This document shows, in pieces, positions 1 to 35,484 of a DNA stretch of 64,000 nucleotides. The stretch's first letter is position 1. Every line of letters starts with the position of its first letter. The notes beneath the pieces are model-generated. The model did no database searches. It was not told where the DNA came from and worked only from the letters and a program-made list of their open reading frames with translations. Origin of the DNA: Marsupella aquatica (lineage: Eukaryota; Plantae; Marchantiophyta); NCBI GenBank assembly GCA_973895155.1, contig OZ316893.1, positions 17,887,836 to 17,951,835 of the forward strand, read 5' to 3'. A program made the translations under genes and the position numbers.

Positions 1-2619
1 ACGCTCCGTAAGCTGGGCTACGGTGTCATTGAGGAAGTGGGTTCCACGGTCGCTTACCAATTCTAAGGGCGGGCCGAATCGGGTGAAAATCTGTTCGTAT
101 AAGAATCTAGCACTGGTTGCAGCGTTGTCCTTTACCGTAGCCCGCGCTTCGACCCACTTGGTGGAGTAATCAATAGCTAGTAGGATGTACCTGCATCTTT
201 GCCTTCGGGTAACGGGAGTAAACGGCCCGATATAATCAATTCCCTATTTTTTGAATGGTGCCAATGGAAGCACAAATGTGAGCGGGTGATGATGAGCCCG
301 TCTCGGGGCCCCAGCCCGCTGACACAGGTCATAGCCCTTAATGAAGCGTTGTACATCCCGATGCAACGTCGGCCACCAATACCCCGAGTCCAGAATCTTT
401 CGGGCTGTCGTGACCGCCGCGAAATGGCCTCCAGCTTCTTCTTCATGCAAGGCCCGCATCACGATAAGCGTCTCCTTATACTCCAAGCAGCGTCGTAACT
501 TCCCATTAACTCCTTCCTTATGTAGGTGACCCTGTACCATGATGTAAGGCCCGGCTTTCCGTAGAAACACAACGGCGGCTTCCTGATTGATGCCGTTAGG
601 GATGCGGCCCGTCAAGAGGAAGGTGATAATTGAGCCGTACCACGTTGGCGTCCCCGCCCCTACGTGGAACAACTCCTCATCCGGAAAAATATCATCAATT
701 GGCTGATCGACTGGTACGCCGTCCAGCCTTGAAAAGAAGTCGGCATTGAGGTGTGCCTTTCCGGGCCGAACCCGAACTTCGTAGTTAAATTCCTGGAGAA
801 GTAGCACCCACCGGGCTATCCGTCCTGTCACGTCCGCTTTGTTGACCATGTACTTCAGGCTATCATGATCCGTGTGGAATATGACCTTGTAGCCTAGCAG
901 ATAGTGTCGGAACTTTTTACACGAGTAGATTATTCCCAGAGCTTCTCGATCAGTGGGGGAATAATTCTTTTCGGCTGTGAATAATTGACGGCTAGCGAAG
1001 TAGATGGGGTGGTCGCGTCCGTTCTCATCAAGCTGACTGAGCACGGATCCAATACAGAACCCTGACACATCGACATACACGTGGAACTCCTTATTCCAGT
1101 TCGGAGTGACCATGATAGGTGCGGTTGTGAGTCTTTTACGGAGTTCTTCGAAAGCAATCCGTCTCCTGGGTGTCTCCTCGATTACCGCGTCCTTTTTCAT
1201 CATCTCAGTCAAGGGCAACGCTATTTTAGCAAAGTCTTTAATAAACCGACGGTAATACCCTACACAGCCCAAGAAGGATCGTACCGCTTTTTGATCTACG
1301 GGAAACACCACCGCCATCCAGGCCGCGACCTTCTCTTGGTCCACCTCGATACCCTGTTTGGACACACGATGCCCGAGTAATACTCCCTCCTCTACCCCGA
1401 AAAAACATTTAGCGGGATGTAGTTTGAGGTTAACCTCTCGGCATCGTTGCAACATTCGTCTTAGGTGTTCGGGGTGCATGGCAACGGTTCCGAAGATGGC
1501 AAAGTCATCGATAAATATCTCCAGAAATTCCCGTAGGAAATCGTGGAAGATATTCATCATAAGGCGTTGAAACATGGCCGGGGCATTACACAGACCGAAA
1601 GGCATCCTCCGAAATGCGAAAGTCCCCCACTCCGTAGTGAAAGTTGTTTTGAGCTGATCCGCGAGGCGAATCCAGATTTGGTTATAACCTGAATACCCGT
1701 CAAGAAATGTATAGATTTCATTTTGGGCTACCATATCTAGAACCATATCCGTGAATGGTAATGGGTAATGGTCTTTTCGGGTTGCGTCGTTCAGCTTACG
1801 GTAGTCCTGACAAATACGAATCTTAGGTTTTCCATCCGTACCTCCCTTCTTAGGTACAATGACAATGGGAGAGACCCAGTCGTTGGCCATTACCGGGTAG
1901 ATGATATCGGCGGCGAGGAGACGATCAATTTCCTCCTTCACTAAGATGGAGTACCTCGGGTTCATGCGACGTTGTCGCTGCCGTACCGCATGGGCTCCTA
2001 GGTTCAGATCGATCGTGTGTTCTCCCAACTCGGGGGAGACGCCTGTTAAATCATGATGACTCCATGCAAACACATCTTCATATTCCTTGAGCAAAGCTTG
2101 GATGGATTTTTCAGCCTCCCCTGTCAGAGCGTGGCCCAGGTTAAAAGATTTGTCCATCCCAATGGTGTACTTCCGGTAGTGCTCCTTCCTGATGACTTCA
2201 ACCTGGTTTCGCAGGCTCGCGTCCAGGCTCGCATCAAGCTCGGCTAACCGAACTCCTCCGTACATGGGTGGAACCGGGATTGGTCTCGGGATTGGAGTTA
2301 CTTCCTCCAATTGCGGAATGGACGGATCCCATGAGACTCGTTTCTTATGTCTCGGTCTCGAGTTTTCGGCCTCGGGCGGTTGTTGGGCTGGTTCGTGGTC
2401 ACGAGGCTCTGCAACGATAGAAGCAGCCTCGGTTCCCTGCTTAGCTGGAGCCGTGTCCTCCATCTCGATGAGTTGTTCATGCGTTTCCTCATCCCTGGCA
2501 GTAGATGTGCTTGGGGTGGACTCAATGGCAGCCCTCGGGTAGTTTAGGAGATGTGTTTCGCGGGTTGCTTCAACTCCGAAGACATCTTCCTCGGACAGGG
2601 ACGAGATGAGTTCAATCAT
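1..2619 (-). pseudogene. pol: G1 pol: reverse transcriptase, RNase H, integrase
   Basis: RT motifs: CQDYRKLN, LDGYSGYNQI, MPFGLCNAP, FIDD. RH: FHVYVDVS, DREALG. INT zinc finger H..H..CQR. The core continues past a stop at 244 (GIDYIGP, IDYSTKWVEA, SDRGTHF). Confidence 0.95.
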
Positions 2620-5300
2620 ATTGAGTTCCTTTCCTCCAAGGTCTCCAAATCATATTCCTCGGGTCCTTGTGGGGTTTCTCCCTGATAATCGTCCATTGCC
2701 CATGATACCCGTACGGTGGGTTCCCCGAACCGTAGCTCCTTCTTTCCCCAATCCGTGACTACGCTGCCACCGCACAGCCACGGCCTGCCCAGAAGAACCG
2801 GGTAAGAGGAGGGACGAACCGGCCTCATGACTAGGAAGTTGAGATAGAACTCCACCCCTCCCACCAGGGTGAGCACTCGTGTGAGCGTGCCTAATGGGAG
2901 GACCCTTGCCCCGTTTGCTAATCTGATGGCTCGGGCTGTGGGTTGATACGTGAGGTATCCTAACTTGACTGACGTTTCTTTAGTCATGATGTTGACTCCC
3001 GCTCCTCCGTCTACAAGAACCATCTTGATGGTACAATCATTAATTTTGATCAAGATGTCCGGCGCTCCAAGGTCCTCGCATATCATGTTGCAGTCCGCGA
3101 TCCCAACTCGGGGTAGTCTCCTCCTCCGGCGACCCATGAGCAACTCCCTTAGTTGCCATCTGTACTGTGGGTTGTTCTGCAGCAGTTGCCCCACCGTCGT
3201 TGTAACCAGGCAACTCTTCATGTCTTCCTTAATATCGTAGTTCTCCTTTTTATCCTCTTTCGGCTGCAGCTTGGCTTCCTCTTGCTTTTCTTGCTCTTCT
3301 TGCTCCTGGCGTCGGGCGGTCTCGGCTGCTTTGATGTCCTTATCGATTGCCTTCTGGTATTCCCGAGCTTCGTAAGCCTCCAACTCTTTCTTTACCAGTT
3401 CTTCGATGCGGGGGTAGAATAGCTTCGGGTCATCCCGTCGGTAGTCATCGTCCTTTTCCGGGGGTATATCTATCGCTGGCTGCACCGGAGTAGTATCTTG
3501 CTTTTTCCTTCGTTTCTCCTTCGTCTTCTCTTCCTTCCGTTCGGCCCTTGTCGACACTCGGTAGCACTCGGCCTCATCCAATGGATCAGGGTGCTCTGCT
3601 ACGTCCACCAAATTCACCCACTTGGTGTTGTCATCTTGCCATTCTACAGCAATCATTTGGACGACTGCATCGTTCGTGGCCGGTCCAGCCTGGGCCGGTC
3701 TAGCTACGCTCGTTCGAGCAGCAATTACCAACGGACAGTTGGCCGTGGAATGAGCCTCCGTTTTGCAGACTTGACATAGTGGGGTGCCTCGGCCATCTCC
3801 CTGACGTCTTGGTTTGGTGCATTCCCTCGCAAAGTGTCCTGGCTTTTCACAATTATAACAAACCGGGGATCGCCAAATCCCTGGCTTAGGAGGGATGCTC
3901 GGGTTACTGATAACCTGGAAACTCCGGCCATTGTTTGGGTAGGGGTACGCAGTTCTACCCGCTAAATTACGCGGACCTACCGTTGAAATCTGGTACACAG
4001 AATCAGGAGGGTCCTCAAAGAAATACTCCGTGGACTCCGATTCGGGACTCGGGTTGTCAACATCATCCAGCTCTACTTGGTGAACTCGGTTCTTCCACCT
4101 TGGGCATTCCTGCACCACATGGCCGGATTGGAAGCACTTTGAACACCACGCATGGGCTCAAATCTCAGATGGCTTCTTCTTCTCCATCGGCTTTTCAGCA
4201 AGATGTACTGACAGTGCTTTGAGTTGATCCGTGATTTCGTTCAACTTGTTTGCTTTGGCAGCCTTTGGATCTGGTATCGTTCTTCGCGCCCGGGGTTTGA
4301 TCTTCCCCTCCTTCTTCACTCGTCTCTTCTTCTTTTTGCACCGGCTTTCGCTCTCCGAGTCACTTCCTGATGAACTGGAGGTAGAGGATCCGGTGCTTGA
4401 AGCTGAATCCGAACTGGATTCCGTCTCCGAGCTGGACGAGGTCGAACGATGTTTCTTCTTCTTCTTGCGTTTCTTCTTTCTCTCATCGTCCAATTCGGAG
4501 TCACTGTCACTGAAGGTCTCGTACTTACCCTTCTTGCGGCGTGCTTGCTGGCTCCGCCGAGAGTTATAGGTGGACTCCCGGTAAGTTTTGGCGCACGCTA
4601 TGGCCGCCTGCATTGAAATTGCATTATTCTGGCGTACCCAGAATTGCATATTCGTGGGCAAACCATGAAGGAACCATGTAAGCTGGAGCGCGTCTCCCGG
4701 CCTGGGCCGGATCTTGGCCGCAAGTTTCTGAAACTTCTGAATGAACTTCCGCAGGGACTCCTTCTTTCCCATGCGAAGCTGGCCAATCTTTAGTAGAGAA
4801 CGCTATTCTGATCCAATGGCACGAAACTCCTGCAGCAATGCAGCTTGGAATTGTGCCCATGTAGTCCCGGGTGGCAACGAGTTGTACCATGGACGAGCTT
4901 CTCCCCGCATCACTCCCGGGAGGACGGTTAGTTTAATGGCGTCTTCCCCATTAGCTTTAGCAGTGGCTTCAAACTCATCCAACCATTCATCCGGATCATC
5001 CCCATGACGCCCCTTGAAAGGTCGATAATGAAATCGCGATCGTTGCGATATTTGTGGAGGAGCTTGAGCAGCGCGGGCCATCGGTGGAGCGGCTACCATA
5101 GGTGGTGGTGGTGGTGGTGGTGGCGGAGGAACCACAGTAGGACCGGTCGAACCGGACCCCGAAGGTCCCGGGGGTATGTTCATACGTCGGGGCGATTGTG
5201 AGTCCTCCGAGCCCGAAGAATCGGAACTTGTCGTGGTTGCACTTTCTCGTTCGCTGGTCAATCTCCTCAAGTAAGCTGCTTGAGAACGAGTGACGGGCAT
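2616..5300 (-). pseudogene. gag: G1 gag plus aspartic protease
   Basis: Retrotrans_gag-like segment (DPDEWLDEFE..ARPWY), three CCHC knuckles, protease VLVDGGAGVN..LLGRPWL. In-frame stops at 4803 and 4158; frameshift at about 2618. Confidence 0.9.
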
Positions 5301-5393
5301 TTACTCATATAAATGCGATGGTTAGTACTACGTCCTGATGTATCCTGCCTAGGTGAATACGCACATATCTCCCCTCTACGATATGCAGAGTGC

Positions 5394-5411
5394 CCCCTCC
5401 ATCTAGCGCCA
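5394..5411 (-). promoter_or_regulatory. Primer binding site of G1 (tRNA-Asn type)
   Basis: Minus strand reads TGGCGCTAGATGGAGGGG, 17/18 complementary to the plant tRNA-Asn(GUU) 3' end as recalled. An identical 18-mer occurs in G2 and G3. Confidence 0.85.
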
Positions 5412-6317
5412 AAAACAAAGGCTATGTCATGTCGTCGGCTTCGGCCTTAACTCAGACTTCAGCTTAGACGGGCACATCCCTTGTAAATCTGAGGGTTCGG
5501 GCAGGAAGGGAAGCACGTAATGCACCTTATTCTCATAAACTAGCGCTAAGTGCGCATACTGCTAAATATGAACACCTCCTAGGTATGGTTTGTGTTCCGC
5601 CACCGGAATGTACCTTAGTCGATAGCAGGATCGACCCCGGCTTAAGGGCTTCTAAGCCTTCGTGCTGTCCACCTTCGATCCAGATTCAATGATACAGGTC
5701 CTCAACCCGTGCTCGCAACCACTTACCCGTAGGCTACACCCTGTGCACGTCTCGGGTAGTGCGTTCGGCCTGGCCCTGCCACCCATATACAAGAAACCCA
5801 CACACATACACACGCACATGCATACAATCTTGATTTACACGAAGGAAAATGATGGGAAAGGATTTTACTACAAAGGGAACATATGCGTACACTTAGTTGA
5901 CCCGACAGCCCCGGAATGAACAGGTTCAAGGGCGAGGGTGCACACTACAATGGAGCCCGGCTCCGCACTCGCCCGACGAGCTTAGTCCTACCCCCCCCTT
6001 GGTACTCTTTCATTCCCAGAGGTCGGGACTCCCCGCACATACCGCGGACGTCCAACTTTGAAACTAAAAACCCCCCTGCCTCTACCGAGGGGTGCACTAA
6101 ATACTAAGGGCCGAGGGACGGGGTGTCCTCTCGCCGAAGATTCGCTGACTAAGGTCCTAACTATGCTGACAATCAGGCCGGAAACGGCTGTGTCTTATTA
6201 GAAGATCCTAATCTACGTAGGCTGGACAGCATGGCAGCGATGCTGTACCTAAGGCAGGTGCCTGTCCCAAGAGCTTGACTAAGCTAGTCCTAATCCTAAT
6301 CTATTCCTACTCCGCCG

Positions 6318-8959
6318 CTAATGCCTGGCACGCTTGCCAGAGCCGCCTGAATGGGAGCGGCCATCCCGCTGCCTTCGAAGCCTGTCATTGTCCGCCTTGA
6401 GGAGCTGGACCTGGTCCAGCAGAGATTCGTTCTCTCACCTCGCCGCGTCCGTCTCCTCTGCTGCCTCCTGACATGCCTCCTCCAGCTGCTGGGCGTCGCT
6501 CGTCAGTTTACCCGCCAGCTGGTCCTGCTTCTTGGCCTCGGTTTGGAGCCGCGCCACCTCGGCCTGCAGCGTGGCTATCTCCGCCGTATCCCGCTGGGCC
6601 CGTTCCTCGGCCTCCTCCAGGTCTTTCTGCAAGGTGACAGTTTGATTCTTCAAACTCTCAATCTGGTTCCGGAGTCGTGTAATCTCGGCCTCGTTCCCAG
6701 CTTTGGCCTGTTCGGCTAGGGCGGTAAGAGCGTGCGCCTTTGCTAACAACTCATCGGTGGTTGCAACCTTGGGTCATAGTTGCCAAAGCTCAGCCTCTTG
6801 AGCCGCAACTTCGTTCTTTAGGTACACGGACTCCACCCGGTACCGCTCTATCCTCTGAAGGGCCTCTGACTGGGCCGGACCTGCCTTTACTGTGGCAACC
6901 AACTCCTGATTGAAGAAATAGGCTACCTTCCGGGCCATGAACTCCCCGGTATCCCGGGCAATTTGATGAGAGAAATCTCCCAGAAGCCCGTTCAGAAATG
7001 TACCCGGTACGAAGAGTTCCGGGTGGTCCAGGTTGTGCATGTCCGGAGTTGGGCACCGGCAGACGTCAACACGCGTGGGGGCCGGGGCAGTGACGTCCAG
7101 CCCTGGGGACGTAACGTTGGAAGGGGCTGGAGCGTCCTCCTGTAGCAATGTCCGGTTCTCCGGAATAGCCACCGGTGGGTCTTTGGGAGAACCGGGCTCG
7201 GGTAAGACCTCCGCCGTACCGACTTCTGTACTTAGCCCGGCCTGTTGGGTCGCATCAACGGTTGCAACACCTGACCCATCCGGTACCTCCTCGGTTACGA
7301 CTACAGCTACTTGTGGAGGTGGGTGGGTGAAGCTGGCGTGTCCGCTGGACTTCGAGCCTCGGGTTGGGGCCGTCTCTCCAAGGCCGGGAAAACCCACCTA
7401 GCTGGGACCAGCTTTGTAACGTTGACACGGGGAAGGGTTCGTCGATCAAACCGAGCGTACCACTCAAGAATGATCTCGATGTGGCTAGCAAAATATGCCT
7501 TCCCGCCAATGTACAGGGTCTTCCTTCGCCGCTCCATCTCTTCATGGAATTTCTTAGCGAAGTACGACGCCCACCTCCTAGGTCGATAGTTCTCGACCTG
7601 GATAACCTGGGCGGCGGAGATCTCTCCCCGGGGTTCCATCATGTGGAGGGCGTACCTCTGGAACTCCAGTCGCTCAGCTATCTCCGGGATGAGACAGGTC
7701 CTCATCACGAACCCGTTGTCCACTGCTCCCTCTGAGGGAAAGCTTGAAGATTGGTACTTTGCTCCCTTGCCCCCGGGAGCCCGTGATTTGACTCGATGGT
7801 CACCTTCGGGTAACCCGAAGATCATCCTGAGCCGTTCTTCCGTGAGGGACATACTCCTTCCCCGCAACCGAGTATGTTGATGCGCGTCGTCATAATTCCT
7901 GACGAACTCCGTCATGTCCTCCCCGTAGTACCTGCAAGTGTTCCAGGGGAGGGAGGCGAGGTGCTCGAATCCCTGAGTCTTCAGGTACACCGCATGCTTG
8001 GGATGGAGGATGTTTTTGTGAACGTTTTCCCCCATGCGGTGCATCGTCACCTTGGCTACGGCTACCGTGGCCAACGGTAACCCGGATGCAGTGGCGGATT
8101 CCTTCCTCTTCTTCCCCCGTGACTGGCTCGGGGAAGGTGACACCTCCCCATCCTCCCAATCAGGCCTGGGTAGTGCCACTGCCGTTAGTAACAGGCCCGG
8201 GTCGGCCACGGTCACCATGTTGTCTGCCGGGGCCGCTCCTGGGGTCAGAGCAGGGGGTGGGGACGATATAGTGTCGGCCCCCTGAGCGCTTGTTCCTCTG
8301 GGCCGCCTGGTCAAGGGTGGGGTAGCCTCGTCGTCATCGCTAAGATCCACAGCGTTGATGACGGAGCGTACTTGTGCTGGCTGGGCGATCGGTGGTGGGG
8401 TTTGGCTAGGCTGCGGCTGAGGCTGAAGCTGAAGCTAAACCTGAGGTTGTATGGGTACGGGTATGGGTACGGGTACGGCTGAGTTGGTCATATTGGTTGA
8501 TGGCCGAGTTCCCCTGAAGCTCTGTAGGTGCTGGTAGAAGTTCTCTGAAGTGAGTGCAGACGACCTTGTCAAACGGGTAGTGCTGGACTCGCGGTTGATG
8601 ATAGCCCGAACCTGAGCAGGGATGTGGTCGAAGTGATGTCGTTGCAAGTCGATCGTACCCGGGATATTGAAGACCTCGTCCGGAAGCCGAAGCAATGCTT
8701 CCCAAAACCCGATATATTTGTCTCCGTTGAAGAAGTACCCAGATACTTCTGCTGGTCGGTAAAGCTCGCTCTGAGACAGGTAGTCAAAGTTAAGGATGTA
8801 GTGGTGTCGTCCTGCTAGGCGAATGGCTCTCTCGTACTCGCGTTCGATTTCGTATCGGTGCGGGTTGGTGTGTTTCAATGAGTCGGCCAAGTGCCTTCCG
8901 GTAGATAGGAATTGCGTCCAGAATCGAATGGCCGAGCTGGAGAGGATCGTGTGCAACAT
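6318..8959 (-). pseudogene. LTR-encoded accessory ORF (N-terminal helical domain, Athila-ORF1/plant-mobile-domain-like domain, coiled coil)
   Basis: Joined ORFs 8435-8959, 7307-8350, 6774-7397 and 6435-6749. Motif EFVRNYD..LRGRSMSLTEERLRMIFGLP. Homologous to 29756-32395 with many synonymous changes. Confidence 0.8.
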
Positions 8960-9060
8960 TCAGAGGAGATAGTAGTGGCGACTTAGAGCGAACGAGAGAG
9001 CTGGGGTCGAAGCTGGCGCGTGGACTGATGGACTGGTGCACTACAAAGGGTTGGCTCCCC

Positions 9061-9067
9061 TTTTATA
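9061..9067 (-). promoter_or_regulatory. Candidate TATA box (TATAAAA) upstream of the LTR ORF
   Basis: About 100 bp upstream of the ATG at 8959; conserved as TATAAAAA near 32495-32501 in the second copy. Confidence 0.55.
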
Positions 9068-9426
9068 CCTTGAGGGCTTGTCGATCCTCCGATGTCTCCT
9101 CGATGCCCATAGGCTGAACCGCTCACGCTTGTGGTGTACCGGCCACTCCGCCGGTCTGAGTCAGCGCGTGTCAGTGGCCGCTTCCTTAAGTTCGTTATAC
9201 GGACCCGAGGGAGGGGCCCCTCCACGCTCGTAACCCGGGTGTGCGAATAGCGACCCGCCGCCAGTCCGAACCTGAATTCCCCCTTATTGCCTAATGATGT
9301 CCTACCCATAATGATTACCTAAATACTGTCGTTATGCTAATAATAGCGGCCTAAGACACTCCTAACGCACATGCTGAGCGCAGTTAGACCAAATCACTCA
9401 TTAACCGCCGTACCGGCGGCGTCACA

Positions 9427-10915: not shown

Positions 10916-10956
10916 CACCTAACTCTGCGCAACAAACAATTCACAAGTAAGAATGC

Positions 10957-10978: not shown

Positions 10979-13900
10979 TGTGGCACGTTTCCCAAGACCT
11001 CTAACCCCAAGAACTACCCTCAACCGATCATAAACCACTTGTTTATGTCCGTCCTCTTGCCTTATGGCAGCTATTCGGCTTGGAAATGTGATACTCTCCT
11101 TCGATCCACACTTACCGGACCGATTCTTTCACTGGGCTTGTGAATTGTGCACAACTGAGACACCTAATTCCTCTTTAACTTCTTTAGGTATATTTGTATT
11201 CCGCCCCCGGAATGTACCTCTACGGCTTAATTTCTTAAGCCGGCTGAAGGTCTTTGTCAGACTGACTCAACCCACACTTCACCGACTAACACTCTCAATC
11301 CTCACTTTTCTCTCAGAGTTTGATTGGGCAGTTTCCAATCAAGACAATGCGATTGTATTTTGCTCAACAATTCACCCTATTTGACTTAAATCGATCAAGC
11401 AATAGATATCATAACACTCAATTTCTTGGATGGCAAGAATCTGCAAACTATGCAATGAGGCCAACTCAATTCAAACAATTCCTCAGAAATCCAAGGGAAC
11501 TGGTGGTTTACTGATACCCTGCGGTCTAGATTTAGCCAAGAGCTTCCTGTGCTCACAACAATACAGATTAACACTAAAGCCTTGACTAAGAAAAAGCCCC
11601 CGAAGCCACGCTGCCCAGGTTTTTATCCTTGCAGCGCATTCAGGAAAAAACAAACGGAAATCCTAACCACCACACACGGCCTTCCACCGCGATAATCCTA
11701 CCAAAAAACTATCACCTAAAAACTTGAATAGCCCGGAACCCTGTGTGAACCGAGCATCTACTACTACCTAAGCTGACAGGGCGCTACTTGCCCTGTCCCA
11801 TCCTACAACGGCCGCGCCCTTCTGGCCCAAGCCCTTCTCCTGCCGCCACGTCCTCCTTCCAACCGATGACTGGCCCTCCTTAATTGTCAGATGACCGGGG
11901 GTAAGTCCGAATCTTCTAACTCTGCACCTTCTCCTGCCATCGGCCCCGGCCTGACCCCTTCGGCTTCCTCGACTTTGGCTTCTGGTTTTCCGGCCCCGGC
12001 CTCGGTCTCGGCATCGGCATCTGCATTGGCATCCTCCTGGGAAACGGCTTGGAGAGCCTTTGCCTTAACTTCCTCAATCCAAGCCTTTTCCCCGATGCGC
12101 TCGGTCTCGATAACCCACGGTTTCACGTTCTGTGCGTCCATAGAAGCAGTACCATCATGTAAACCTTTTACCGCAGCTCCAAGTTGATCCGCAGTACTTA
12201 CCTCTACCACCGCTGCCTTCAGGGCCACAGGTCCACAAATGTGAGCGGCCATGCTCTCGACTTCCTCCGGAGTGGCTTTAAGGGCCTTAACTTTATTATC
12301 GCCTGGCCCCATGAACGTCTTTGCCAAGTCTGCCACCAACTGCATGGCTTTGCCCCCAGTCACGCTTGACAACAGGGAGCTTGGCTTCGGCTTCGGCTTC
12401 ACTATATTTCCGCCTACCATACTACTGTCGGGAAGCCTTTCAGTTGGTGACCCATATCCCGCTTCGGCATACTTCTTCAATTTCTGCGTTTGATTGTCGG
12501 CACGCCTCTGCAACCTGATCATCTTATCCTTGGCCTCCTCCAATTCCTGAGATACGTTTTCAATTTCATCGTTAAGCCGTAGTATCTCGGCCCTGGCCGT
12601 CTTCAAGGCCGTCTTCAACTCCTCATTTAAGATCTGCACGATCTCCAACTCTTGCTTATCTATGGCTGCTTTCAAGGAGTCGTTGATACCTTCCAGTTTT
12701 GTGACCTCGTTCGTCCATGCCTGCTTTGTCCTGGTTAGCTCCTCCTGAAGCTCCTTGCGTATCTGTTGAACCCGATTTAGGTGATCATTGGCCGCCGTGC
12801 ACATGGCGTCATCATGCTTCTCACGCATGGCCTCCAACCGGTCGAGTAACTTATCATACTTCCTTTGGGCTTCTGCCAAGGCCTTTGGGCTTCTGCCAAG
12901 GCCTTTTCGCTTTGGGTGGCCTGCTCCTTAGCCGTCTTTCTAAGCCTCTCAACTTGGCGATTTAAACCCTGTACTTCTACTTTTGAATTGGCTAACTCCA
13001 GCTCTATCTTCGTCAACTTTTCCTTGATCTATTGGTTATCCAATTGGTAGTTTTCCAATTGGTTGTTTGCCACTTCCAATTCCTGCTGCCTAGCCAAGAG
13101 ATCCTGCTGAGTTGGTTGACCAGACTTTGTCTTAGCAACTTCGGCCTCCATGGTGCGAAGCCGAGCGATTACTTCCTCCTTCTTCAATTGCTCCAATGTC
13201 ATTGCCTCCTCCAGTCTCGTCTGATCAGCCATTTCTTTTCTAAGAAATGGCCCGGATTCCAACTCGTAGCTGAAGATTTCTAAGGCTAAGAGTCCACACA
13301 TGTCTCCATACTCCTTAGCCCAATTTCTTGCATAGTTTGACCTCCCAGGTGATACTGGCATCTGCCATCGAGGTCGTCTCTCCCAAGCTTTTGCCCGTAA
13401 TTGGTCGAAGTCAGTGAGAGGTTCGGCTTGCCTCTCACTAAGCCGTCTTATTCCTTCCAGCCACTCTCCTCCTGGTAGCTGGCATTCATGTTCTGCATTT
13501 CGGGCCCCCCACTCCTTAATCTTCTCATGTAGCCCGGCTTCAACTTCCTTCATCTTGTCGAATTCCAATGGCATCACATCTGGTGAGGAGATTCTGGCAT
13601 TTTCTGGTCCTCCGGTTTGCCATAGAAGACCACGGGAAGTCTTCTACAAAACCTTCCCATCGTTCTAACTCCTGGTACCGGCCTCTCCCCGTGATCGACA
13701 TAGTCATCGTCGTAATCATCCACATTAACCTGACTACCTAACATGCCGGCCTCTCCTCCAAAGCCCCCGATCTCTTCCTCTGAAAATTGTTGGGCTGCTG
13801 CTGGTTGACCTTCCTCCACGGGTCCGTTCACTTGGGCTCTGTTAGAAGCTTTTACTACCGGCCTCTCTTGGCCTCGGCTTACCTCCTCATCTGTCTCCAA

Positions 13901-15645
13901 ATCCATTCGCTCGTCATATTTCTTTCTCTCTTTGGTAGTCATCTTCCTCTCGACCAACTGGATGCCTACATATGGATTATTGCGAGTAGGCCGGTGTAAC
14001 GGATTTCTCACTATATCATATGTTACTACCTCTGGCTCCTTGATAGGGGAATGCTCCCATTCTCGTGTTGCCTGTGTTGCCGACCTCCTCCCGTGGTGTC
14101 GTATGTTTAGAGGCTCCTCATCCTCCTCCACCTCCTCAAGTGGTGCAGTGATCTGCATCCGCTCTTGTATAGGCAACACTGGTGCAAAAGACTGGCTTCT
14201 TGCATATCGGCAAAGTAATTGCAGATGGTACCCTAGTCTGGATACCGCTCCCTCCCCAATGCTCTGCTTCTCTTCGTTTAATGCCTTCTTCAACTGCATT
14301 AAGAGATAGCCGTTGTAGTCTCGGCTTGCATCGATATTCTCTACCAAAAATACCTGGGCTTTGCCAATTTCTGCTCTTGGCAAGGTACAATGCAATGTGA
14401 CTCTCAGGAAATCAATCAGCTGCCCTATATGTGGGTTGGTACATTGATTCCTGAAAAACCCATTCTTAGTGGAAGGCCCTGGAAATGACCTGAACTGGTC
14501 GTCCGGCAACGTCTTCCTCTGCTCCACCTTTGTCTTCCTTCTTGTTGGTAAAGCGAACACGGCTTCGATAAGCGCAGGTGTTAATTCGAACACCTTTCCA
14601 TACAGCAGCGTTGTGTTGGAAGAAGCCTCCCAGCATCCCACGAAGTCCAACAGATCCTCATCCGGTATGTCTACCATTCTCCAGGACAACCTGACAATGC
14701 CCTCCAACCCAGTATCATTCATATATCCTGCATATTTGTTATCCTGAACGGCACTGAAGACCTCATCCTCATCTCTTGCGAACTGTAATTATAAATTGGC
14801 AGGTAACTTGTTCGCCCACCCTGTCATGTTTTTATCTTCTACAGCCCGATCTCTAATTGGCCCGGATTCCATCTTGATTGGTCTCTCCGACCTAGTTTGC
14901 TTTGCTGGAGTTGCAGATGCCGAAACTTCCTTGCGCTTCATCTCTTCAGCGCCTGAATACTTCCCAAGAATAGCTGCCTTCGTCCACTTCGCAGTGTGAC
15001 CCTTCAATTCCCAAAGTGGTTGCCCGGCGTTCTTGATTGCCTCCCTGATCCCCACGACCTTATTCTCCTGAATTAGCAATTCGCCAAGCTCTGCACTGGT
15101 GGGTGTCCACAAGAACTTTTCCAACACCTCCTCCGTATCAACGAATGCCAATTTGTGAATTCCCCACAATCACGCAAGCTCTGCTCGTTCTCTGGCTGCG
15201 CGCTCCGGCTCAACGTCTTCATACGTAGGTATCAGCTGCCTTGCTTCTTCAAGCAAACAGCCCCAAAACTTCCCTGCCTGATTCACCATGTTCATTCCAC
15301 CGAATGCCAAGAACTTGCGCAATTTCCCAAACCACCTCCTCCGATCGATCGGCAGCTGATTCCACCTCCCTAGGTTGATCGAACAAGCAATTGCACTAGT
15401 GTATAGAGTGTCGGTCCCCTCCCTACGAAGCCGCCTCCTGATGGCTTACCTGATCAAGCCCTGATTAGGTCATAACCCTAATCCCACTTAATCGCGACCG
15501 TTGGATCAGATCCCATCACAATTTCCCTTGAACATATTGCAATCGGCTTCGATCCTTATAACTCCCTAATTATATCTACCTAATCTTTATTTAGCCATTA
15601 TTTTAGGCTTAACTAAGTACTTCGTGATCCTGGCACGGCATCACA
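10979..15645 (-). repeat. G2 5' LTR, about 4.7 kb
   Basis: TGTGG...TCACA termini, adjacent PBS, homologous to 60107-64000. Unrelated coding sequence starts right after 15645. Confidence 0.8.
11887..15289 (-). pseudogene. G2 LTR-encoded accessory ORF (plant-mobile-domain-like plus long coiled coil)
   Basis: ORFs 14789-15169 (in frame with an ATG at 15289), 13574-14722, 13029-13577, 12777-13016 and 11887-12879. Motif LLDFVGCW..YGKVFELTPALIEAVFALP. A 20-bp duplication at 12862-12901 causes one frameshift. Confidence 0.8.
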
Positions 15646-26131: not shown

Positions 26132-28873
26132 ATGCATCAGGCAAGTGAGGATGGACAGTTGGGCAAAAGAATCAAAGACATACCATTGAACTATGACTCC
26201 CTTTGCATCACCCATTGAGGATCACACGTCATGACTCCAAGTTGTGGAATAGAGAGGTGCTTAGAGCAAGCAGGGGCAGAAATGCCCGGATGAGATGCCC
26301 CTGCACAGAGTGTCGAGGATACCACTCGATGACCCAGAATCAAGTGCATTCTCATCTTCAAAGGCATGGAAGACATCCAATCTGCAAGGTCTGGAATGTG
26401 CCAGAGGAAGAGGATTCATCGGATGATGAATGGAGAGCAGATTTTGAAAATGTGAATACTGCAAGACGCTCTGCATTCTTTCATAACGTCACTGGTCCTG
26501 CAGGGAACAATGCCAAAGATGAGTATGTTCCATAGGGAGGTCCCAAGACTTCTAATGAGGACGGGGCAGATGTTCCCCGGATGGTTTCAGACATTTTTGA
26601 AGACCTGGATGCACTTTATGAAGATGCATAGGCACAGGGGGACAAAGAACCAGACATGCATGGTGCAGGTCCGTCGGACCAAGAAGAGTTTGACATTGGA
26701 GAACGAGCTGGAGATTATGGTCAATTCTTGGGAATTGGGGCCAACTTGGAGGAAGCTACGTCCCCATTGTATGGTGGTGCAAATTGCTCCAAAATAGGGT
26801 TCATAGTGATATTCCTCAATATATGTGGATGTCACCGTGTGCCCAACATATGTGTTGTGAGTTGTTGATGTTCCTATAGAGGACAATACTACCCGCTGGA
26901 AACATTGCTCCTACGAACATGTATGAGGCAAAGAAGGTGATGAGCAAACTTGGTTTGAATTATGTGTCTATCCATGCATGCCCAGATGGCCATGTACTTT
27001 TCAAAAAAGAATATGCTGATTGCCTATCTTGCCCTATCTGCGGACAGCATAGATATAAGAACGTGGGGAAGTCAACTCAACCTGCTAAGGTCTTGTGGCA
27101 TTTCTGGGGGCATTTCCCTCTCATTCCAAGATTGCAGCCCCTCTATAGGTGTCCATCCATTTCTAAGAAGATGACTTGGACCTTTGATCACAAGAGTACA
27201 AATGGTTTGCAACGTCACGATGGCTTTTTGTCCTGGGAGATATGGTGCCCCTGGACGCTGGAGCATTAACGATGCAATTAGATGTATGGTAGATTTCAAT
27301 TCATTGCCAAATGTGGACATTGTAGGAGTCACTGCTATTTGTGGACGCTTGGGAATGAGATCAATTCAGGACGGATGGTCGGTGGAGACAGGGGGCTGGA
27401 AAGACCTTCCGCTTAGGGGGCAGGTGCTGCGAGGATTCACGGGGGAGCACAGAGGGCTGGCTAGAGCGTTCCTAGGGAGAATTTGGGAGTCAACTGCCTG
27501 CAGGTGGGACAGGGATCCTCCGGCCAGACAGTGGAGCTGGTCTGACAGGGCAGAACCTCTCAAGGACTTTCAGATCACCAACTGCAGGGTCTACCAGTTC
27601 TTGAGACCCAAGATGAGCCGTCATGTGCTGCTTAATAGGTGCTGGTCCTCACACCGGTCGGAAATTGAATGGTGCATTGGATGGAAGAAGCTGTGGATTT
27701 CTGACCTCTCCTGCAGGGCAAAAACCTTTATCTGGCGGATCCTGGTTGGTGGATTGTTTACTGGTCAACGGGCCCTCCGTATCCAGGCTGGTACTGGGAA
27801 TTGCAAGCTTTGCTATGGGGTCTTGGAGACGATGCAACATTTGTTCATTGAATGTTCCCATGCCTCATGTTGATGGAGGATGTGTGACAGGATTTTGACG
27901 GAGCTTCGCTTACCCATTGGAGGTGGTCTGCTGGCTATTCTTGATGCATCGACAAGACCGGAGCCTATTCACACTGCTAGGATCTTTTGTGTATATCAGA
28001 CTCTTTGGATGATTTGGCTGGGAAGAAATGAACATATGTTCTCTGACAAGGTGGGACGTTCATTTGACTTGGGCCTGATGCTTGCTGAGACTGCCAATCA
28101 CATCCATGCGGTTGGGGCTGGTTTACGCTTTGGGCGGCGTCGCTCTCGGTTGAACCGGGCTCAGGAATGGTTGCGGGGAACGAGGCAAATCTGGCTGAGA
28201 CGGGGTGGGGACAGGATTCTCTTGGTGCCCTCTAGCAGCGGCGTTGCTAATTGAGGGGTCTGCTTTTTGGGGGGCTGCTGTGGGAAGGGCATGGATGCTC
28301 TCTTGATCGGTGTTATTTCCCTTCTTTGAGGGGGGGCTCTCCCTGGGGCTTTGATGCTCTCTTTTGTGCTTTTGGGCTCTCTTTGTGGCTCGCTAGTATG
28401 TTGTTGCTGTCCCTGTATTAAGGGCTGTTGTTCCCCCTATCCGTGGGGTCTTTCACGGTATTAAAATTTATAAAAAAAACCATTCCAAGGAACGTCACGT
28501 TGGTGATTCCAACCATTGGAAGTACATAGATGAGGATTGGCCGGACTTTGCAGTAGAGAGCATAAATGTGAGGTTTGGTCTAAGCCTTGACGGTGCTAAT
28601 CCTTTTGGAGACAAGAACAACGTGTATTCCTTGAGCAGTATCAAATTCCAGGGCCACGGGCGATATCTTCCTGCCAACCACCCTTTCAGGCACAGGCAAT
28701 CCCACATAGCCCGCTTCAACAACCAGAGGGAGCTTTGAGAGCCACATGTGTTGGTTAGTAGAGACCAGCTTCTGCAATGGGGACTGAACAAGGTGTCTTA
28801 TGATGAATATGGTGCTTCTAGAGACGTGCCAAACCACCCAATAAAGACTCATGGCATCAAAAGACAGACAATC
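26132..28873 (+). pseudogene. CACTA/En-Spm transposase (TnpD-like), degenerate, split by a LINE
   Basis: CPCTEC..HLQRHG, EATSPLYGG, IHACPDGH..CPIC, HFPLIPRLQ; resumes after the LINE as WKYIDEDWPDFA..NVRFGLSLDGANPF, HGIKR. Confidence 0.9.
27220..28490 (+). mobile_element. 5'-truncated L1-type LINE
   Basis: zf-RVT (KTFIWRI..CKLC..ETMQHLFIEC), poly(A) at 28472-28479, 9-bp TSD AACGTCACG at 27211-27219 and 28491-28499. Confidence 0.9.
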
Positions 28874-31800
28874 ATGGACACCTAGGCCTAGGCCTTAACC
28901 CGGGCTTTGGCTTAGACAAGCACATCCTTCGTAAATATGAGGGTTCGGGCAGGGAGGGATGCACAAAATGCTCCTAACTCACATAAACTAGCGCTAAGTG
29001 CGCTTACTGTTATGTACAGACACCTCCTAGGTATAGTTTGTGTTCCGCCGCCATAACGTACCTTAGTCGACACGAGGTCGACCCCGGCTCACGGACTTCT
29101 AAGCCTTCGTGTTACCGCCTTCAATCCGGATCCATTAGTACAAGGGCTCAACCCGGGCTCGCAACCCCGTTCCCGTATTCGGCACCCCGTGCACGGTTGG
29201 CATAACGTGTTTGGCCCGGCGTTGATACTTTGCACACGAGACTCATACATGCATTCATACATAACAGAAATCTCGATTTACACGAAGGAATTAAGGAGAA
29301 AGGATTTCATTCATTTATGATCATACACTTTACGATTGGTTGACCCGACACCTCGTGAACGAACGGGTCCAAGGCCAAGGAGTATACACTACAATGGAGC
29401 CTAGCTCCGCACTCGCCCAACGAGCTTAGTCGTATACCCTCCCCTTGGCACTCCGGTACTTCACCGAGTTTGGGACTCCCCATGCGTACTGCGAATGGCT
29501 AACCTCTGAGTCTAAAATCCCCCTCCCCTAACCTCTACTAGGGGGCCGCTAAATACTAAGGGCTGAGGACCGGCCTGGCCTTTGCCTGAATCTACGCTAA
29601 CTTATATCCTTGCTAAGCTGGTGCTTGCTTGTCCTATTAGTTTAACCTATTCTACACAGGCTGGCTAATGTGTCAGCGCCGCTATCTTTTGGCTGGCACT
29701 TGTCCTACCAGCCTATTTTAGCTACTCCTAAGTCTATTCTAAGCCTAACCCTCCGCTAATGTCTGGTGCGCTTGCCAAAGCCGTCTGGGTGGGAGCGGCC
29801 ATCCCGCTGCCTACAAAGTCTGTCGTTGTCCGCCTTGAGGAGTTGGACTTGGTCCAACAGAGATTCATTTTCTCGCTTTGCCGCATCCATCTCCTCAATT
29901 GCCTCCTGGCATGCCTCTTCCAATTGTTGGGCGTTGCTCGTTAGCTTGTCCACCACTGGGTCTATTTCTCGGCTTTGGCTTGAAGCCGTGTCACTTCGGC
30001 CTGCAGGGTGGCAATCTCCGCAGTGTCACGTTGGGCCCGCTCTTTGGCCTCCTCTAGGTCTTTCTGCCAGATGATAGTTTGGTTCTTCAAACTGTCAACC
30101 TGGGTCCGGAGCCGTGCAATCTTGGCCTCCTTCCCGACTTTGGCCTGTTTGGCTAAGGCGGTAAGGGCATGCGCATTTGCTAACAACTCATTGGCGGCTG
30201 CAACCTTGGGTCATAGTTGTAGAAGCTCAGCCTCTTGAGCTGCAACTTCATCCTCTAGGTACACGGACTCAACCCGGTACCGCTCTATCCGTTGAAGGGC
30301 CTCCGATTGAGCCCGACCTGCCTTTACTGCGGTAACCAACTCCTGATTGAAGAAGTAGGCTACCTTCCGAGCCATGAACTCCCCGGTATCTAGGGCTATC
30401 TATTGGGAGAAATCTCCCAAAAGCCCATTTAGAAATGTACCTGGTATGAAGAGTTCCGAGTGGTCCAGGTTATGCCCGTCTGGAGTTGGGCACGGGCAGA
30501 CGTTAACTCGCGTGGGAGCCGGGGTAGTGACATCCAGCCCTGGGGATGTACTGTTGGAAGGGGCTGGAGTGTCCTCCTCCACCATCGGGCCATCCTCTGG
30601 AATAGCCACTGGTGGGTCTTCTGGACCCTCGGGCTCGGGAAAAGCCTCCACCGCCCCGACTTCTGCTCCAGGCCCGGCCTGGTTGATTGCATCTAAGGTT
30701 GCGATCACTGCCTCTTCCGGTACTTCTTTGGCCATGGCTACCGCTACCTGTGGAGATTGGATGGTGAGGCCTGCGTTGCCGCCGGACTTTGGGCCTCGGG
30801 TTGAGGCCGTCTCTCCAAGGCTGGGAGATCCACTTAGTCGGGACCAACTTAGTTACGTTGACCCGGGGAAGGGTTCGTCGATCAAACCGGGCGTACCACT
30901 CGAGAATGATCTCGATGTGGCTCGCGAAATATGCCTTCCCGCCAATGTATAGCGACTTCCTTCGCCGCTCCATCTCTTCATGGAACTTCTTAGCGAAGTA
31001 CAAAGCCCACTTCCTAGGTTGATAGTTCTCAACCTGGATAACCTGGGCAGCGGAGATCTTTCCCCGGGGTTCCATCATGTGGAGGGCGTACCTCTGGAAC
31101 TCTAGCCGCTCAGCTATCTTGGGGATGAGGCAGGTCCTCATCACAAACCCGTTGTCCACTAACCCCTCGGAGGGAAAACTCAAGGATTGGTGCTTATCTC
31201 CCTTGCCCCCGGGAGCCCGTGATTCGACTCGATGATCGCCCTCGGGTAGCCCGAAGATCATCCTGAGCCGCTCCTTTCTGAGGGACATATTCCTCCCCCG
31301 CAGCCAAGTATGCTGACGGACGTCATCATAATTCTTGACAAACTCCGTCATGTCCTCCCCGTAGTATATGCAGGTGTTCCAGGGGAGAGAGGCGAGGTGC
31401 TCAAACCCCTGAGTCTTCAAGTACACCGCATGTTTGGGGTGGAGGATGTTCTTATGCACGTTTTCCCCCATGCGGTGCATTGTTACCTTGGCTGCGGCTA
31501 CCGTGGCCATGGGTAGCCCGGATACAGCTGCGGGTTCCTTCCTCTTCTTTCCCTGAGACTGGCTCTCGTGATGGCTCGGGGAGGGTGACACCTCCCCATC
31601 CTCCCGATCGGGTATGGGTAGTGCCACCACCATTAGTATTGGGGCCGGGGAGGCTACGGTCACCGTGTTATCCGCTGGAGCAGCTACTCGGGTCCGGGCC
31701 TGGGGAAGGGGCGATGTAGTGTCGGCTCCCTGGGTGCTTGCTCCTCTAGGCCGCCTGAGCAGGGGTAAGGTATCGTCTTCGTCGTCGCTCAGGTCCATAG

Positions 31801-32870
31801 CATTGACGACGGAGCGTACTTGTACTAGCGGGGCGACCGGCGGTGGGGATTGGCTAGGTTGAGGTTGAGGTTGAGGTTGAGGTTGAGCCTGGACTGGTGC
31901 GGGTATGGGCATGGCTGGGCTGGCACCGGTGGTCGATGGTGTAGTTGCCATGAAATTCTGTAGGTGCCGGTAGAGGTTTTCTGATGCAAGTGTAGACGCC
32001 CTTGTAGATCGGGTAGTGCTAGACTCGTTGTTGATGATGTCCCGGACCCGAGCGGGGATGTGGTCAAAGTGGTGCCGCTGTAAGTTGATCGTGCCCAGGA
32101 TATTGAAGACCTCGTCCGGGAGCTGAAGCAACGCCTCCCAGAAGCCGATATATTTGCCTCCGTTGAAGAAGTACCGTGATATTTCTTTGGGTCGGTAAAG
32201 CTTGCTTTGAGATGGGTAATCAAAGTTAAGGATATAGTGATGGCGGACTGCTAGGCGGATGGCTCTCTCGTACTCGCGTTCAATCTCGTATCGTCGCGGG
32301 TTGGTGTGTTTCAACAAGTCGGCCAAGTGCCCTCCGATAGACAGGAACTGTGTCCAGAATCGTATGGCCAAACTGGAAAGGATTGTGTGCGACATTCAGA
32401 GGAGATGGAAGGCGACTAAAGATAAGAGAGAGAACTAGGGTCAAAGCTGGCACGTGGACTGAAGAACTGGTGCACTGCAAAGGATCGGCCCCCTTTTTAT
32501 ACCCTGAGAGCTTGTCAATCGCCCGTCGCCTCCTCATCGCTTATAGGTCTAGCATTTCACGCCTGTAGTGTACCGGCCACTCCGCCAGTCTGGGTCAGCG
32601 CGTGTCAGTGGCCGCCTCCCAAAGTTTGTTATACCGACCCGAGGGGGGGAAAGGGGAGGGCCCATTACACGCTCTCAACCCGGGTGTGCAAATGGCGACC
32701 CACCGCCAGCCCGAACACGAACGCCCCTTATTGACTAATGATTTCCTACTCATAATGGCTACCTAAATAATGTCGTTATGCTAATAATTACGGCCTAAGA
32801 TACCTCTACCGCGCGTGCTAAGCGTGGTTAGGCCGAATCATTTATTAGCCATCGTACTGACGACGTCACA
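28872..32870 (-). repeat. Solo-like LTR of the G1 family
   Basis: Colinear with 5425-9426 and ends in GTCACA. The left terminus is eroded; neither PBS nor PPT is adjacent. Confidence 0.85.
29756..32395 (-). pseudogene. LTR-encoded accessory ORF, second G1-family copy
   Basis: ORF 30503-32395 plus downstream pieces, clearly homologous to 6318-8959. Confidence 0.8.
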
Positions 32871-35135
32871 ACAACTTATCAGTCACCCTTGGGAAGTGTG
32901 ATACACTCTCCCCAACAGCCACCAAGGCATCCACTTCTAACAACTTCCCCTTCATGTACATGTGGAATTTGGGAAATAAGCATGGTCGTCGACTATTGTG
33001 CTTATCCTCCTCATAAAATGTGGTCCATTTCCCAACAATCTCTTGAGAGTTATACAACATGAATGCAATGAGTTTAGTGCGCTCACTAGGGTCAAGAAGC
33101 CGTTCTCCCTTTGCACCTGTCAAACGGTCATCCTCATAGTCTGCTTCTCTTGATGCCTCATCTATCCACCCCATTGGAGCATTTTAATCAAGTGTATCAA
33201 TAATGTTTGTACAATAAAACATGCTCTCTGCTCCAAGATGACGCTCAGCAATGCTACCTTCCACCCTTGCGTGATTTGAAACATAGGACTTCATCACTCC
33301 CATGTACCGCTCCACCCACTACATCCAACGACAATGTACAAGGCCTGCAATACCAACCTCACGCACTTGATGTAGTAGAAAATGAACCTGACCATCAAAA
33401 AATGAAGGAGGAAGGGCCCTTTCAAGTTTGCACACAACCTCCACTCCAAACACCTCCATTGATGCAACCTCATCCTCGTTCACCTCCTTTTGACACACCC
33501 ATCTCAACAACTTACCCAACAACCAAAGGGCATCACAAAGATCCTCACTACCCAATCCAATAATAGCAACTGGAATAACATGTTGCAATAAGCAATGATA
33601 ATCATGGGTCTCCAAGAAAGCTGGCCATTTTGGAGAGTCAAGTCCACCAAATGCCTTGCGGAGATTGGCACCATACCCTATAGGAAATCGCATAGACCCT
33701 ATGCATTTGCAAAACTCAGTCCGCTCACCTTGTGTCAAAACTTGTCGCGCCCATAATCCGGGCCTTAAATCCAAGTTAGTTCCCTGGGGTGACCACGACC
33801 ACTAGTAGGGGTGTAGTGGTCCCGATTAGCCCTAAGTTGGGCTAAGTCGATATACTTGCCGATATAATACTTACGTAACTCGTACGGGTATAGGTATATT
33901 TGTTTTCCACCGCTGGAATATTCCCACAGTTAGTGACTTGGACTAACTCCCGGCTTGGGGCTTTCAAGCCATCCACGCGACTTAGAACCTTGCGTTATGC
34001 AACCCGAGGCAATCCCTACCATTAGTCCGCACCCGGTACGTCCCTTCAAATGGCGTCTTTGCCCAGACAAAGCATGCACACAACACCAGTTACTTGCGAT
34101 AGAATCAGAGGGAAAAGACTACATTTTACTCAGCAAAGAATCGGTTTACATAGTTGACTTGACTTCTAAGGGGTCAGTAGGCCTAATGGCAGTCGATGCC
34201 CAGTCTCTACGAGGCCATGTGTAGTTTGTCAGGGAAAACCAAAAAGCACACTTTATGGTCTTCCAACTCGGTATTCGTTCCCGTAAAGAACAAGATGGGG
34301 TTGGTTTGATAGATTTAAACAACAATAATAGACTTAAGATGTTTTCCACACATAGTAATCAAGTTTGATTACTTTACTAAGGTATTTTGAAGATCGCTCC
34401 ACAGCAGTGAGAAGTTTTTAATGATATCTCAGCATTATGTAACCATAAATTAATGAAAAGGGAATGATTAACAAAATATTAAAAAAAAATTATCTTAAAG
34501 TATGCTAAGGGAGTCTGGAATTGACCAAGGTTGCTCCTTAGACATAAGTCAAAATGAAAAAACTTAAGTATTCAAATCCATATTGTTTTTCAGATCTAGA
34601 ATGTTTACTAGATTACCCTTTTAAAGTGCCGTCAACACGTCTTGTCTTTTCTTTCTAAGTGGTACTCAGACAAGATCTAAAAGAGTGACTACTTCAACAT
34701 TTAGATGGTACTAAGCAACATGAAAGAAAATCCATCAATTTCAATAAGACATAAACTCAATGAGTTAACTTTAAGAACTTAGGAATTTGTAATGAGTCAC
34801 CAAGGAGGAATCTTTCATCACAAGATCCAAAGATTTCTTACAAATGCAATTTTACTTCTTGTGTTTATGATAAGTGTAGAAACACAAGGAGGTAAGTCTC
34901 TCCTGTTATTAAGCCTAATTTAGAACTCATAGGTTCAGAATCAATAGACTTAACAAGAGGGAGAGGCAAAAATGCACAACTTAACCATAAACTACACTAG
35001 TGGTGGAGGGGTCTTATAGTAAAAATCTACAGAGTAAGAGGGTCATAAGGTCGAAGAGACATGCCTCTTCATACTCCTCAAAAAGTTAAAATGATGATTC
35101 AGTAAGTGAAAAGCCGGAAAACTGGCTAAGTCTGA

Positions 35136-35330: not shown

Positions 35331-35484
35331 CAAATTTGCCAGAAGTCTCTCCTAAGTACAGACTACACCCTAAAGTAGTCTCATAGTTTTTAAAAGCTCT
35401 AGAACACATTTCTAAAAATTGGACAAGATGTACTACTCTAAAACTTAACTAAAAACACTTAGGACTTCTGCCTTAATCTTGGTG

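Follow-up and report, generated by a model that had tools for sequence, protein, structure and literature searches.

Whether the long terminal repeat (LTR) of a plant retrotransposon can hold an entire protein-coding gene, and keep it after the remaining parts of the element have gone, is the question raised by a locus of the liverwort Marsupella aquatica. The window analysed here is a stretch of 64,000 nucleotides of contig OZ316893.1 (positions 17,887,836 to 17,951,835) and is a transposon nest. On its minus strand lies the Ty3/Gypsy element G1, for which the original prediction had placed a whole accessory open reading frame (ORF) inside a giant LTR at 5425..9426. A true integration end on one side and the primer-binding site (PBS) on the other enclose the gene, which survives in a solo LTR flanked by a target-site duplication (TSD) and evolved under purifying selection. 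We moderately favour the reading that these are Gypsy elements with an LTR of ~4 kb holding an accessory gene, which is kept in solo LTRs, presumably copied to both LTRs and likely encodes a DNA-binding protein of the VANC/PMD fold that would protect its own family from silencing.

The coordinates given for the 5′ LTR of G1 proved correct. It comprises 4002 bp on the minus strand, starts with TGTGACG at 9426, ends with ...TGACA at 5425 and shows a terminal inverted match of 10 out of 15 bases. The LTR sits within the gag zinc knuckle of a second element, G2. It is followed on the same strand by the PBS (5391..5411), the first 21 nt of which are identical across G1, G2 and a third element, G3, by a stop-broken gag (4158..5300) with BLASTP matches to the gag of G2 and G3, and by zinc knuckle, protease (PR), reverse transcriptase (RT), RNase H (RH) as well as integrase (INT) within 1..4157, identified with Pfam and continuing past the window edge. 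Both the TG...CA LTR followed by a PBS and the order of gag and then PR-RT-RH-INT on the G1 frames match Ty3/Gypsy LTR retrotransposons. The spacer between CA and PBS measures 13 nt in G1 versus 4 nt in G2 and G3, and the 3′ boundary of the G1 LTR is therefore uncertain by ~10 nt. Athila elements have a PBS for tRNA-Asp or tRNA-Asn, and that of G1 may be tRNA-Asn-like.

The accessory ORF (6318..8959, minus strand; ATG at 8959, stop at 6318) has a length of 2.64 kb or ~880 codons, takes up two thirds of the LTR and shares its sense with gag-pol. It is interrupted by stops at 8435-8437, 6774-6776 and 6435-6437 and by a frameshift near 7310-7400. Its layout consists of an N-terminal helical domain, a Pro-rich linker, a core that resembles the VANC/PMD fold, another linker and a coiled-coil-like tail. 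Selection was measured against the related copy solo1 as the ratio of nonsynonymous to synonymous substitution rates (dN/dS), a check suggested together with the original prediction. The core (221 codons) gave 0.11, with 13, 13 and 48 differences at the three codon positions, while the shifted frames gave 1.7-1.8. Given this ratio and the skew between codon positions, the ORF is not a product of chance and was under purifying selection. The N-terminal 160 codons gave 0.22, the linkers and tail 0.41-0.52, and the N-terminal domain and core together 0.16 (bootstrap 0.105-0.22).

A full HMMER scan with the accessory ORF detected 33 related proteins, including some from Calypogeia fissa, where the annotation lists them as unnamed proteins. 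Homologue searches based on words, with the same ORF as query, gave no match. Unbroken relatives are P0154 (906 aa, on a 3.6-kb Logan contig) and P0167 (787 aa). One Calypogeia contig carries two pairs of nearly identical genes, which looked like an LTR pair; this was dropped as the accession order suggests opposite orientation.

Contigs from four public sequencing runs (X1 to X4) were aligned over 9290-9520 to the G1 TG end. In all four runs, contigs departed right behind 9426 into unlike flanks (13, 18, 16 and 16, respectively), and agreement behind this position was 0.40-0.43. The depth across the TG end fell from 21,638 to 740 in X1, and the empty, uninterrupted G2 gag site was present in 4 out of 4 runs. 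Position 9426 is therefore a true integration end, given the many unlike flanks, the collapse of depth and the intact G2 site. In X1 and X2, the first bases of the loose-end consensus at 9426 resembled the polypurine tract (PPT) end of a relative in reverse complement, and in X3 and X4 they did not, which is a hint only. Summed contig depth, which according to a warning of the tool is no copy number, was 4.7-, 5.6- and 5.2-fold higher over 5501-9350 than over 1-4950 in X1, X2 and X3 (means of 7 versus 9 bins). All 7 LTR bins exceeded the highest of the 9 internal bins in these runs (depth over 1-16500), and no peak was seen over the last ~0.6 kb of the unit (5501-6050). A comparison of short shared words gave no repeat that would join one end of the unit to the other, which speaks against a short terminal LTR pair within it. 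In G2, too, the depth of the LTR exceeded that of gag.

Further LTR units of this kind, all on the minus strand, are present in the window; those that have both ends within view measure 3.8-4.7 kb. The 5′ LTR of G2 (10979..15645, 4667 bp) has its TG at 15645 and its CA at 10979 and contains an accessory ORF of ~3.4 kb at ~15300-11887 (profile hidden Markov model (HMM), E 2e-33). Its PBS lies at 10974 and its gag at 10918-9427. The LTR of G3 (60107..64000) contains a related ORF (HMM E 5e-13 and 6e-8) and adjoins a PBS at 60102 and gag-protease at 59950-57132; G3 is truncated afterwards, and the stretch 57100-60102 ends after the protease without RT. The placement of the ORF between TG and CA, on the LTR side of the PBS, had been claimed for all three elements. 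It stands for G1 and G2, and for G3 on the CA/PBS side, the TG end lying beyond 64000. The claimed ORF length of ~2.6-3.4 kb likewise agrees with G1 and G2, though both ORFs are broken.

Three units occur without gag-pol or as probable solo LTRs. The clearest is solo2 (33743..41724; 3838 bp net of a nested unit), which belongs to another family than G1. It has TG..CA ends, a perfect TSD (AAACT, 5 of 5 bases at both sides) and no gag-pol, as expected of a solo LTR, and the reading frame that hosts it, which we take to be CACTA-like, resumes across the insertion site. Remnants of the ORF lie inside at ~41300-38860 (HMM E 1.7e-17 to 1.5e-5 on four fragments). The prediction that formation of a solo LTR keeps the gene is borne out by this copy. 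Nested in it is solo3 (34220..38358, 4139 bp, TG..CA, TSD in 4 out of 5 bases), a probable solo LTR with a related ORF at ~37700-35500 (BLASTP to the ORFs of two metagenome relatives, L001 and L008, E 3e-13 and 9e-12). The G1-family LTR solo1 (28870..32870; ORF 32395-29756) has no gag-pol and matches G1 along its entire length, with 80% identity across 4028 columns. Its 3′ terminus is short by 2-3 nt and a clean 5-bp TSD is absent.

For comparison, 80 metagenome loci were screened, among which no full element of G1's clade with both LTRs was found. A 4.2-kb repeat in L006 was rejected as an LTR pair since it covers part of pol. In L001, the pol stop is followed by the motif TGTTCGCG with a purine tract, by TGTGGGAGC and, 514 nt further, by the accessory ORF. 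TGTGGGAGC is the perfect 9-nt inverse of the LTR end preceding the PBS of this locus. Read from this order, the ORF of L001 begins 514 nt inside the 3′ LTR, past the PPT. The same order is present in L008 and L004; L008 contains a complete ORF and no second PPT in its final 218 nt. These three loci form a clade that is sister to G1 and Calypogeia (99/97; 37 rows, midpoint root). By profile comparison, the ORFs of L001 and L008 are distant homologues of the accessory ORF: the round-two profile, built without either locus, detected L008 with E 4e-8 and L001 with E 7e-7, and the best reversed control with 0.27.

Two further loci carry the same ORF family in another arrangement (L002:3714-7576 and L003:3321-5400), with a purine tract on both sides and the motif with PPT downstream. 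They likely keep the ORF internal, and both layouts likely coexist in one lineage. The arrangement of L002 and L003 is a possible intermediate between the internal and the LTR-resident layout. L005 was left out of the set with the ORF in the LTR: a comparable purine tract precedes the ORF in its sister L002, where it does not mark an LTR start. In a more distant clade (L010, L013, L016 and L017), a long sense ORF starts 100-200 nt past the pol stop, and the interval is free of a PPT; this ORF escaped the core profile in all four. Scans of viral contigs gave no relatives, and a scan of bacterial genomes gave one distant contig. A Gypsy pol relative, L081, was seen on a bacterial metagenome-assembled contig labelled Dehalococcoidia and is probably eukaryotic contamination.

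These results bear on two other readings of the 4-kb unit. The accessory gene could be an ordinary internal 3′ extra ORF, with a true LTR of the last ~0.6 kb and window layouts that are tandem or recombined. L002 and L003 likely show such a layout, and a stretch with a G-run at 6041-5990 in G1, as expected of a relic PPT after the ORF, resembles the pre-PPT motif of L001 (p 0.065; absent from six other segments). However, many flanks mark 9426 as an integration end, a perfect TSD surrounds the entire solo2, depth has no peak over 5501-6050, the ends of the unit share no repeat and the TG end lies upstream of the ORF in two independent families (G1 and G2). This reading is largely refuted and we regard it as very improbable. 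Hardly credible, in our estimate, is that the unit represents a non-autonomous mobile element in its own right, which came to lie before PBS and gag by chance. It would account for the three occurrences of the unit alone in the window, the G1 spacer of 13 nt instead of 4 and the subterminal-type motif arrays of solo3 described below. Still, the unit adjoins the PBS in all three PBS-bearing elements of the window, its TG..CA ends and 5-bp TSD fit a Gypsy integrase, and in L001 the PPT marks the start of the unit, whose end is found again ahead of the PBS.

The LTR-resident position is thus the preferred one. The PPT very probably lies upstream of the gene, so that both LTRs would receive promoter and gene whenever the element is reverse-transcribed, because the gene is located between the integration end and the PBS and standard reverse transcription duplicates this part. 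The presence of two gene copies per full element is a prediction that is backed in this way, by the depth over the whole unit and by L001. A 3′ end that repeats just a short terminal part, the result that would contradict it, was not encountered among the incomplete copies of the family covered here. Recombination between the LTRs would then delete gag-pol and spare the gene. As to its origin, the gene was likely an ordinary extra ORF on the 3′ side of the internal region, the arrangement probable for L002 and L003, and would have entered the LTR as priming shifted to an upstream purine tract.

A TATA-like box (9060..9067, minus strand) is common to G1 and solo1. It lies 360 nt inside the TG end and ~100 nt upstream of the ATG, and by its position it may serve as promoter of the ORF. 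Similar boxes were found 339 and 459 nt inside in L004 and L008, respectively. Over their initial 900 nt, G1 and solo1 have a single consensus TATA, which is the one upstream of the ORF, and the same applies to L004 and L008. Directly downstream of the ORF, the word TATTTAG is conserved in G1, solo1 and solo2 and could be a second promoter. CTAAATAC occurs four times in the window (6097, 9319, 29549 and 38509), always in non-coding LTR of G1, solo1 and solo2. This count was reached by 2 out of 100 shuffles for a motif picked after it had been noticed, and CTAAATAC is a possible second TATA-like element or binding motif.

To study the fold of the protein, the core domain (7400..8062, minus strand, 221 aa) was modelled from the solo1 core, which is 90% identical to that of G1 (pLDDT 93). 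The predicted fold is VANC/DUF1985/PMD-like. With Foldseek, the best match was VANC21 bound to DNA (9lnj/9lnk) with E 1.5e-3, probability 1.00 and TMq 0.55, and the next match had E 0.9. A second structure search over 48,161 chains returned VANC21 with Z 8.0 (rmsd 4.2, 206 aligned), followed by Z 2.3; it was the only one with Z>=5. Atlas clusters for the core were DUF1985 (0.90) and PMD (0.89). Transposase_32 was seen below threshold in 2 out of 36 alignment rows, and a sequence search of the PDB gave no match below E 0.16. The model of the N-terminal domain (pLDDT 75) had no clear fold match, with a best E of 1.7 in Foldseek, a best Z of 6.0 in VIA, among helical bundles, and no match in Atlas.

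A possible role of the protein is suggested by proteins of like fold. VANC binds short motifs, often tandem in non-coding transposon DNA, and demethylates related copies (PMC5735166), and PMD-C proteins have the VANC fold (bioRxiv 2024.09.27.615353; PMC13547354). By analogy, the protein might oligomerise via its coiled-coil tail, bind short non-coding LTR motifs and oppose silencing in trans like VANC, to which we give slightly less than even chances. Intact solo LTRs would then serve as helpers for the family. The ORF of solo3 is flanked by two same-orientation arrays of the 7-nt motif ACT(C/A)GTAA (plus strand) at 35136-35236 (8 copies) and 38083-38244 (11 copies). They are candidate VANC-type binding arrays, or subterminal repeats of another element.

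The same layout could nevertheless serve another role of the protein, namely restraint of the family as for MAIL1/MAIN, transactivation of the LTR or tethering of the particle or integration complex to chromatin by the coiled coil. The PMD fold serves silencing in Arabidopsis, where MAIL1/MAIN promote the silencing of transposons (PMC5418596), and because they share the fold, it is compatible with either direction of effect. The absence of a VANC-type motif array from the non-coding LTR DNA of G1, the low identity to VANC21 and the conserved N-terminal domain without clear fold match also fit such a role. On the other hand, VANC21 is the sole solved structure at Z>=5, solo3 does carry motif arrays, and a benefit to the family in trans would more easily explain why a gene that many solo LTRs contain is under purifying selection. 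We therefore consider these other roles possible, yet rather unlikely. A different question, independent of the function of the protein, is the position of the gene within the LTR. If the TATA at 9067 were the sole LTR promoter, the gene would lie in R or U5, genomic RNA would begin with it and strong-stop DNA would exceed 3 kb. This agrees with the lone consensus TATA preceding the ORF. It would, however, place gag behind a 2.6-kb ORF and require a very long strong-stop product, and the conserved TATTTAG could be a second promoter; the arrangement appears doubtful to us. It is fairly probable that U3 contains the gene together with a TATA promoter of its own, ~360 nt away from the TG end, and that genomic RNA starts from a second promoter downstream.

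Besides the warning attached to summed depth and the silencing role of MAIL1/MAIN, several results weigh against an LTR-resident anti-silencing gene. The window contains no element with both G1-family LTRs, as the 3′ end of G1 lies outside, and all copies examined in it carry a broken ORF. A further run, X5, in which the sequence is weakly represented, did not show the depth pattern and was excluded from the ratio. Among the relatives, terminal inverted repeats were checked in L001 alone, and the first-round profile missed L001 and reached only E 0.076 for L008. A purine tract upstream of the ORF is by itself no mark of an LTR start, because L002 and L003 have one in addition to the downstream motif and PPT. 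The match to VANC21 has 10-11% identity, an E slightly above the Foldseek cut-off of 0.001 and a borderline Z. At curated thresholds, Pfam (including PF09331 and PF10536) matched none of the 36 alignment rows. Motif arrays are present in 1 out of 6 units, solo3, and were found in none of G1, solo1, G2, G3 and solo2.

Solo LTRs are usually seen as coding-dead remains and as a route by which plants purge elements. Here, they retain a selected gene of ~2.6-3.4 kb and likely its promoter, and if intact ones were expressed, purging of gag-pol would leave a regulator of the family in place. In its widest form, which we put forward as no more than tentative, a bryophyte Gypsy lineage would have moved a VANC-like anti-silencing gene into its LTR, and the formation of solo LTRs, the main purge route of the host, would leave many self-contained anti-silencing cassettes that sustain the activity of the family in trans. 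If so, a counter-silencing system would be built into the LTR itself, and the VANC/PMD fold might have acted as a retrotransposon accessory factor beyond flowering plants. Plant Gypsy elements have extra ORFs that long lacked an explanation, and the predicted fold connects these to the solved structure of VANC21 with DNA, so that their role becomes directly testable. Since the ORF lies inside the LTR in some relatives and outside it in others, they provide a natural example of LTR boundary movement. LTR finders can also overlook coding LTRs of 4-5 kb, which may then enter annotations as host genes.

A stem-loop near the LTR 3′ end (5581..5615 in G1, minus strand) is common to G1, G2, G3 and solo2. 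It has the form TTCC-N-C..GGAA, occurs at 5595, 11199, 33905 and 60351, 160-250 nt inside the LTR 3′ end, and is kept in four otherwise unlike LTR families and degraded in solo1. It is possibly a packaging or priming element; Rfam gave no match at E<=0.1 in 5300-16000, which includes the copies of G1 and G2. The window also contains the 3′ ends of two LINEs (zf-RVT; a poly-A tail is present in one of them) as well as remnants of CACTA Transposase_21 (27175-28480, 51502-52467 and 42381-43136). The insertion site of G2 falls at the start of a plus-strand ORF (15628-17000) without Pfam match, the DGNHR motif of which we take to resemble ParB-like domains. A plus-strand remnant that adjoins G3 is presumably Ulp1-peptidase-like.

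With regard to classification, the RT-RH of G1 was 71% identical to a Calypogeia fissa protein, followed by Riccia and Marchantia among named bryophytes. In the RT tree, its clade of Calypogeia and metagenome elements was set apart from five unlabelled angiosperm rows (100/100). The additional RNase H of Tat (TatI-III, Ogre, Retand) was found neither between RH and INT of G1, up to the window edge, nor in any of six related pol frames; Tat Z lineages without it are described (PMC13468544). In the lineage table of PMC6317226, Athila has no additional RNase H and a 5-bp TSD, and both were seen here, the TSD in solo2 of the other family. Phygy is listed there with a 4-bp NCGN TSD and no extra ORF, unlike the 5-bp TSD of solo2 and the extra ORF. 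The same source gives LTRs of up to ~5 kb for non-chromoviruses. These features fit a liverwort-type non-chromovirus of an Athila-like or Tat-zero lineage and do not fit Phygy. In contrast to the internal extra ORF of Athila, Ogre and Retand, the ORF is enclosed here by the TG end and the PBS and is also contained in solo LTRs. In contrast to VANC of VANDAL Mutator-like elements, it is encoded by a Gypsy LTR.

Full-text searches of the literature, which did not extend to Repbase, subscription papers and most supplements, listed no plant LTR retrotransposon with a gene resident in the LTR. The available parts of PMC12885004 and PMC12859917 mention none. Extra ORFs were scored in PMC6317226 solely as upstream or downstream of pol, and cases of the kind described here may therefore hide in such data. 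Plant extra ORFs are placed internally or upstream of gag-pol (PMC7264820; PMC6431247; PMC11963269; PMC3485330), and the first three of these sources agree with the original prediction that those of Athila, Tat and Ogre usually are internal. Giant LTRs like those of Ogre (1.9-6.5 kb) are treated as non-coding (PMC7264820; PMC6431247; PMC11963269). The liverwort elements differ from this picture by the place of their gene.

The LTR of mouse mammary tumour virus (MMTV) is much shorter than the 4-kb unit. Its sag gene is the precedent in that an entire ORF lies within the LTR, where a promoter is also reported, but it belongs to a retrovirus and encodes an unrelated protein, so that only the layout is convergent (PMC9412291). 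Rice Retrosat2, RIRE3 and RIRE8 share LTRs of >3 kb, many solo LTRs and an extra ORF0, which is located upstream of gag-pol and was queried apart from the LTR (PMC3485330). Athila and Tat ‘zero’ elements are similar, with PR-RT-RH-INT, no extra RNase H seen, a 5-bp TSD, large LTRs and an extra ORF of the PMD/Transposase_32-like group; their extra ORFs are described as internal (PMC6317226; PMC13468544; PMC7264820), and in the RT tree the angiosperm rows are separate. PMD-A of Gypsy elements and MAIL1/MAIN belong to the same structural group, PMD-A being likewise Gypsy-encoded and DUF1985/PMD being the Atlas neighbours, while the protein described here has no PF10536 or PF09331 match at threshold, resides in an LTR and comes from a non-seed-plant lineage (PMC5418596; bioRxiv 2024.09.27.615353). 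VANC21 (PDB 9lnj/9lnk) is alike in the predicted core fold, a coiled-coil region, the role as a transposon accessory protein (PMC5735166) and, in solo3 alone, tandem motif arrays in non-coding DNA. It differs by the low identity given above and by the lack of the additional N-terminal domain, and VANC is described as dicot-specific and MuDR-encoded (bioRxiv 2024.09.27.615353; PMC13547354), whereas its candidate counterpart is found here in the Gypsy LTR of a liverwort.

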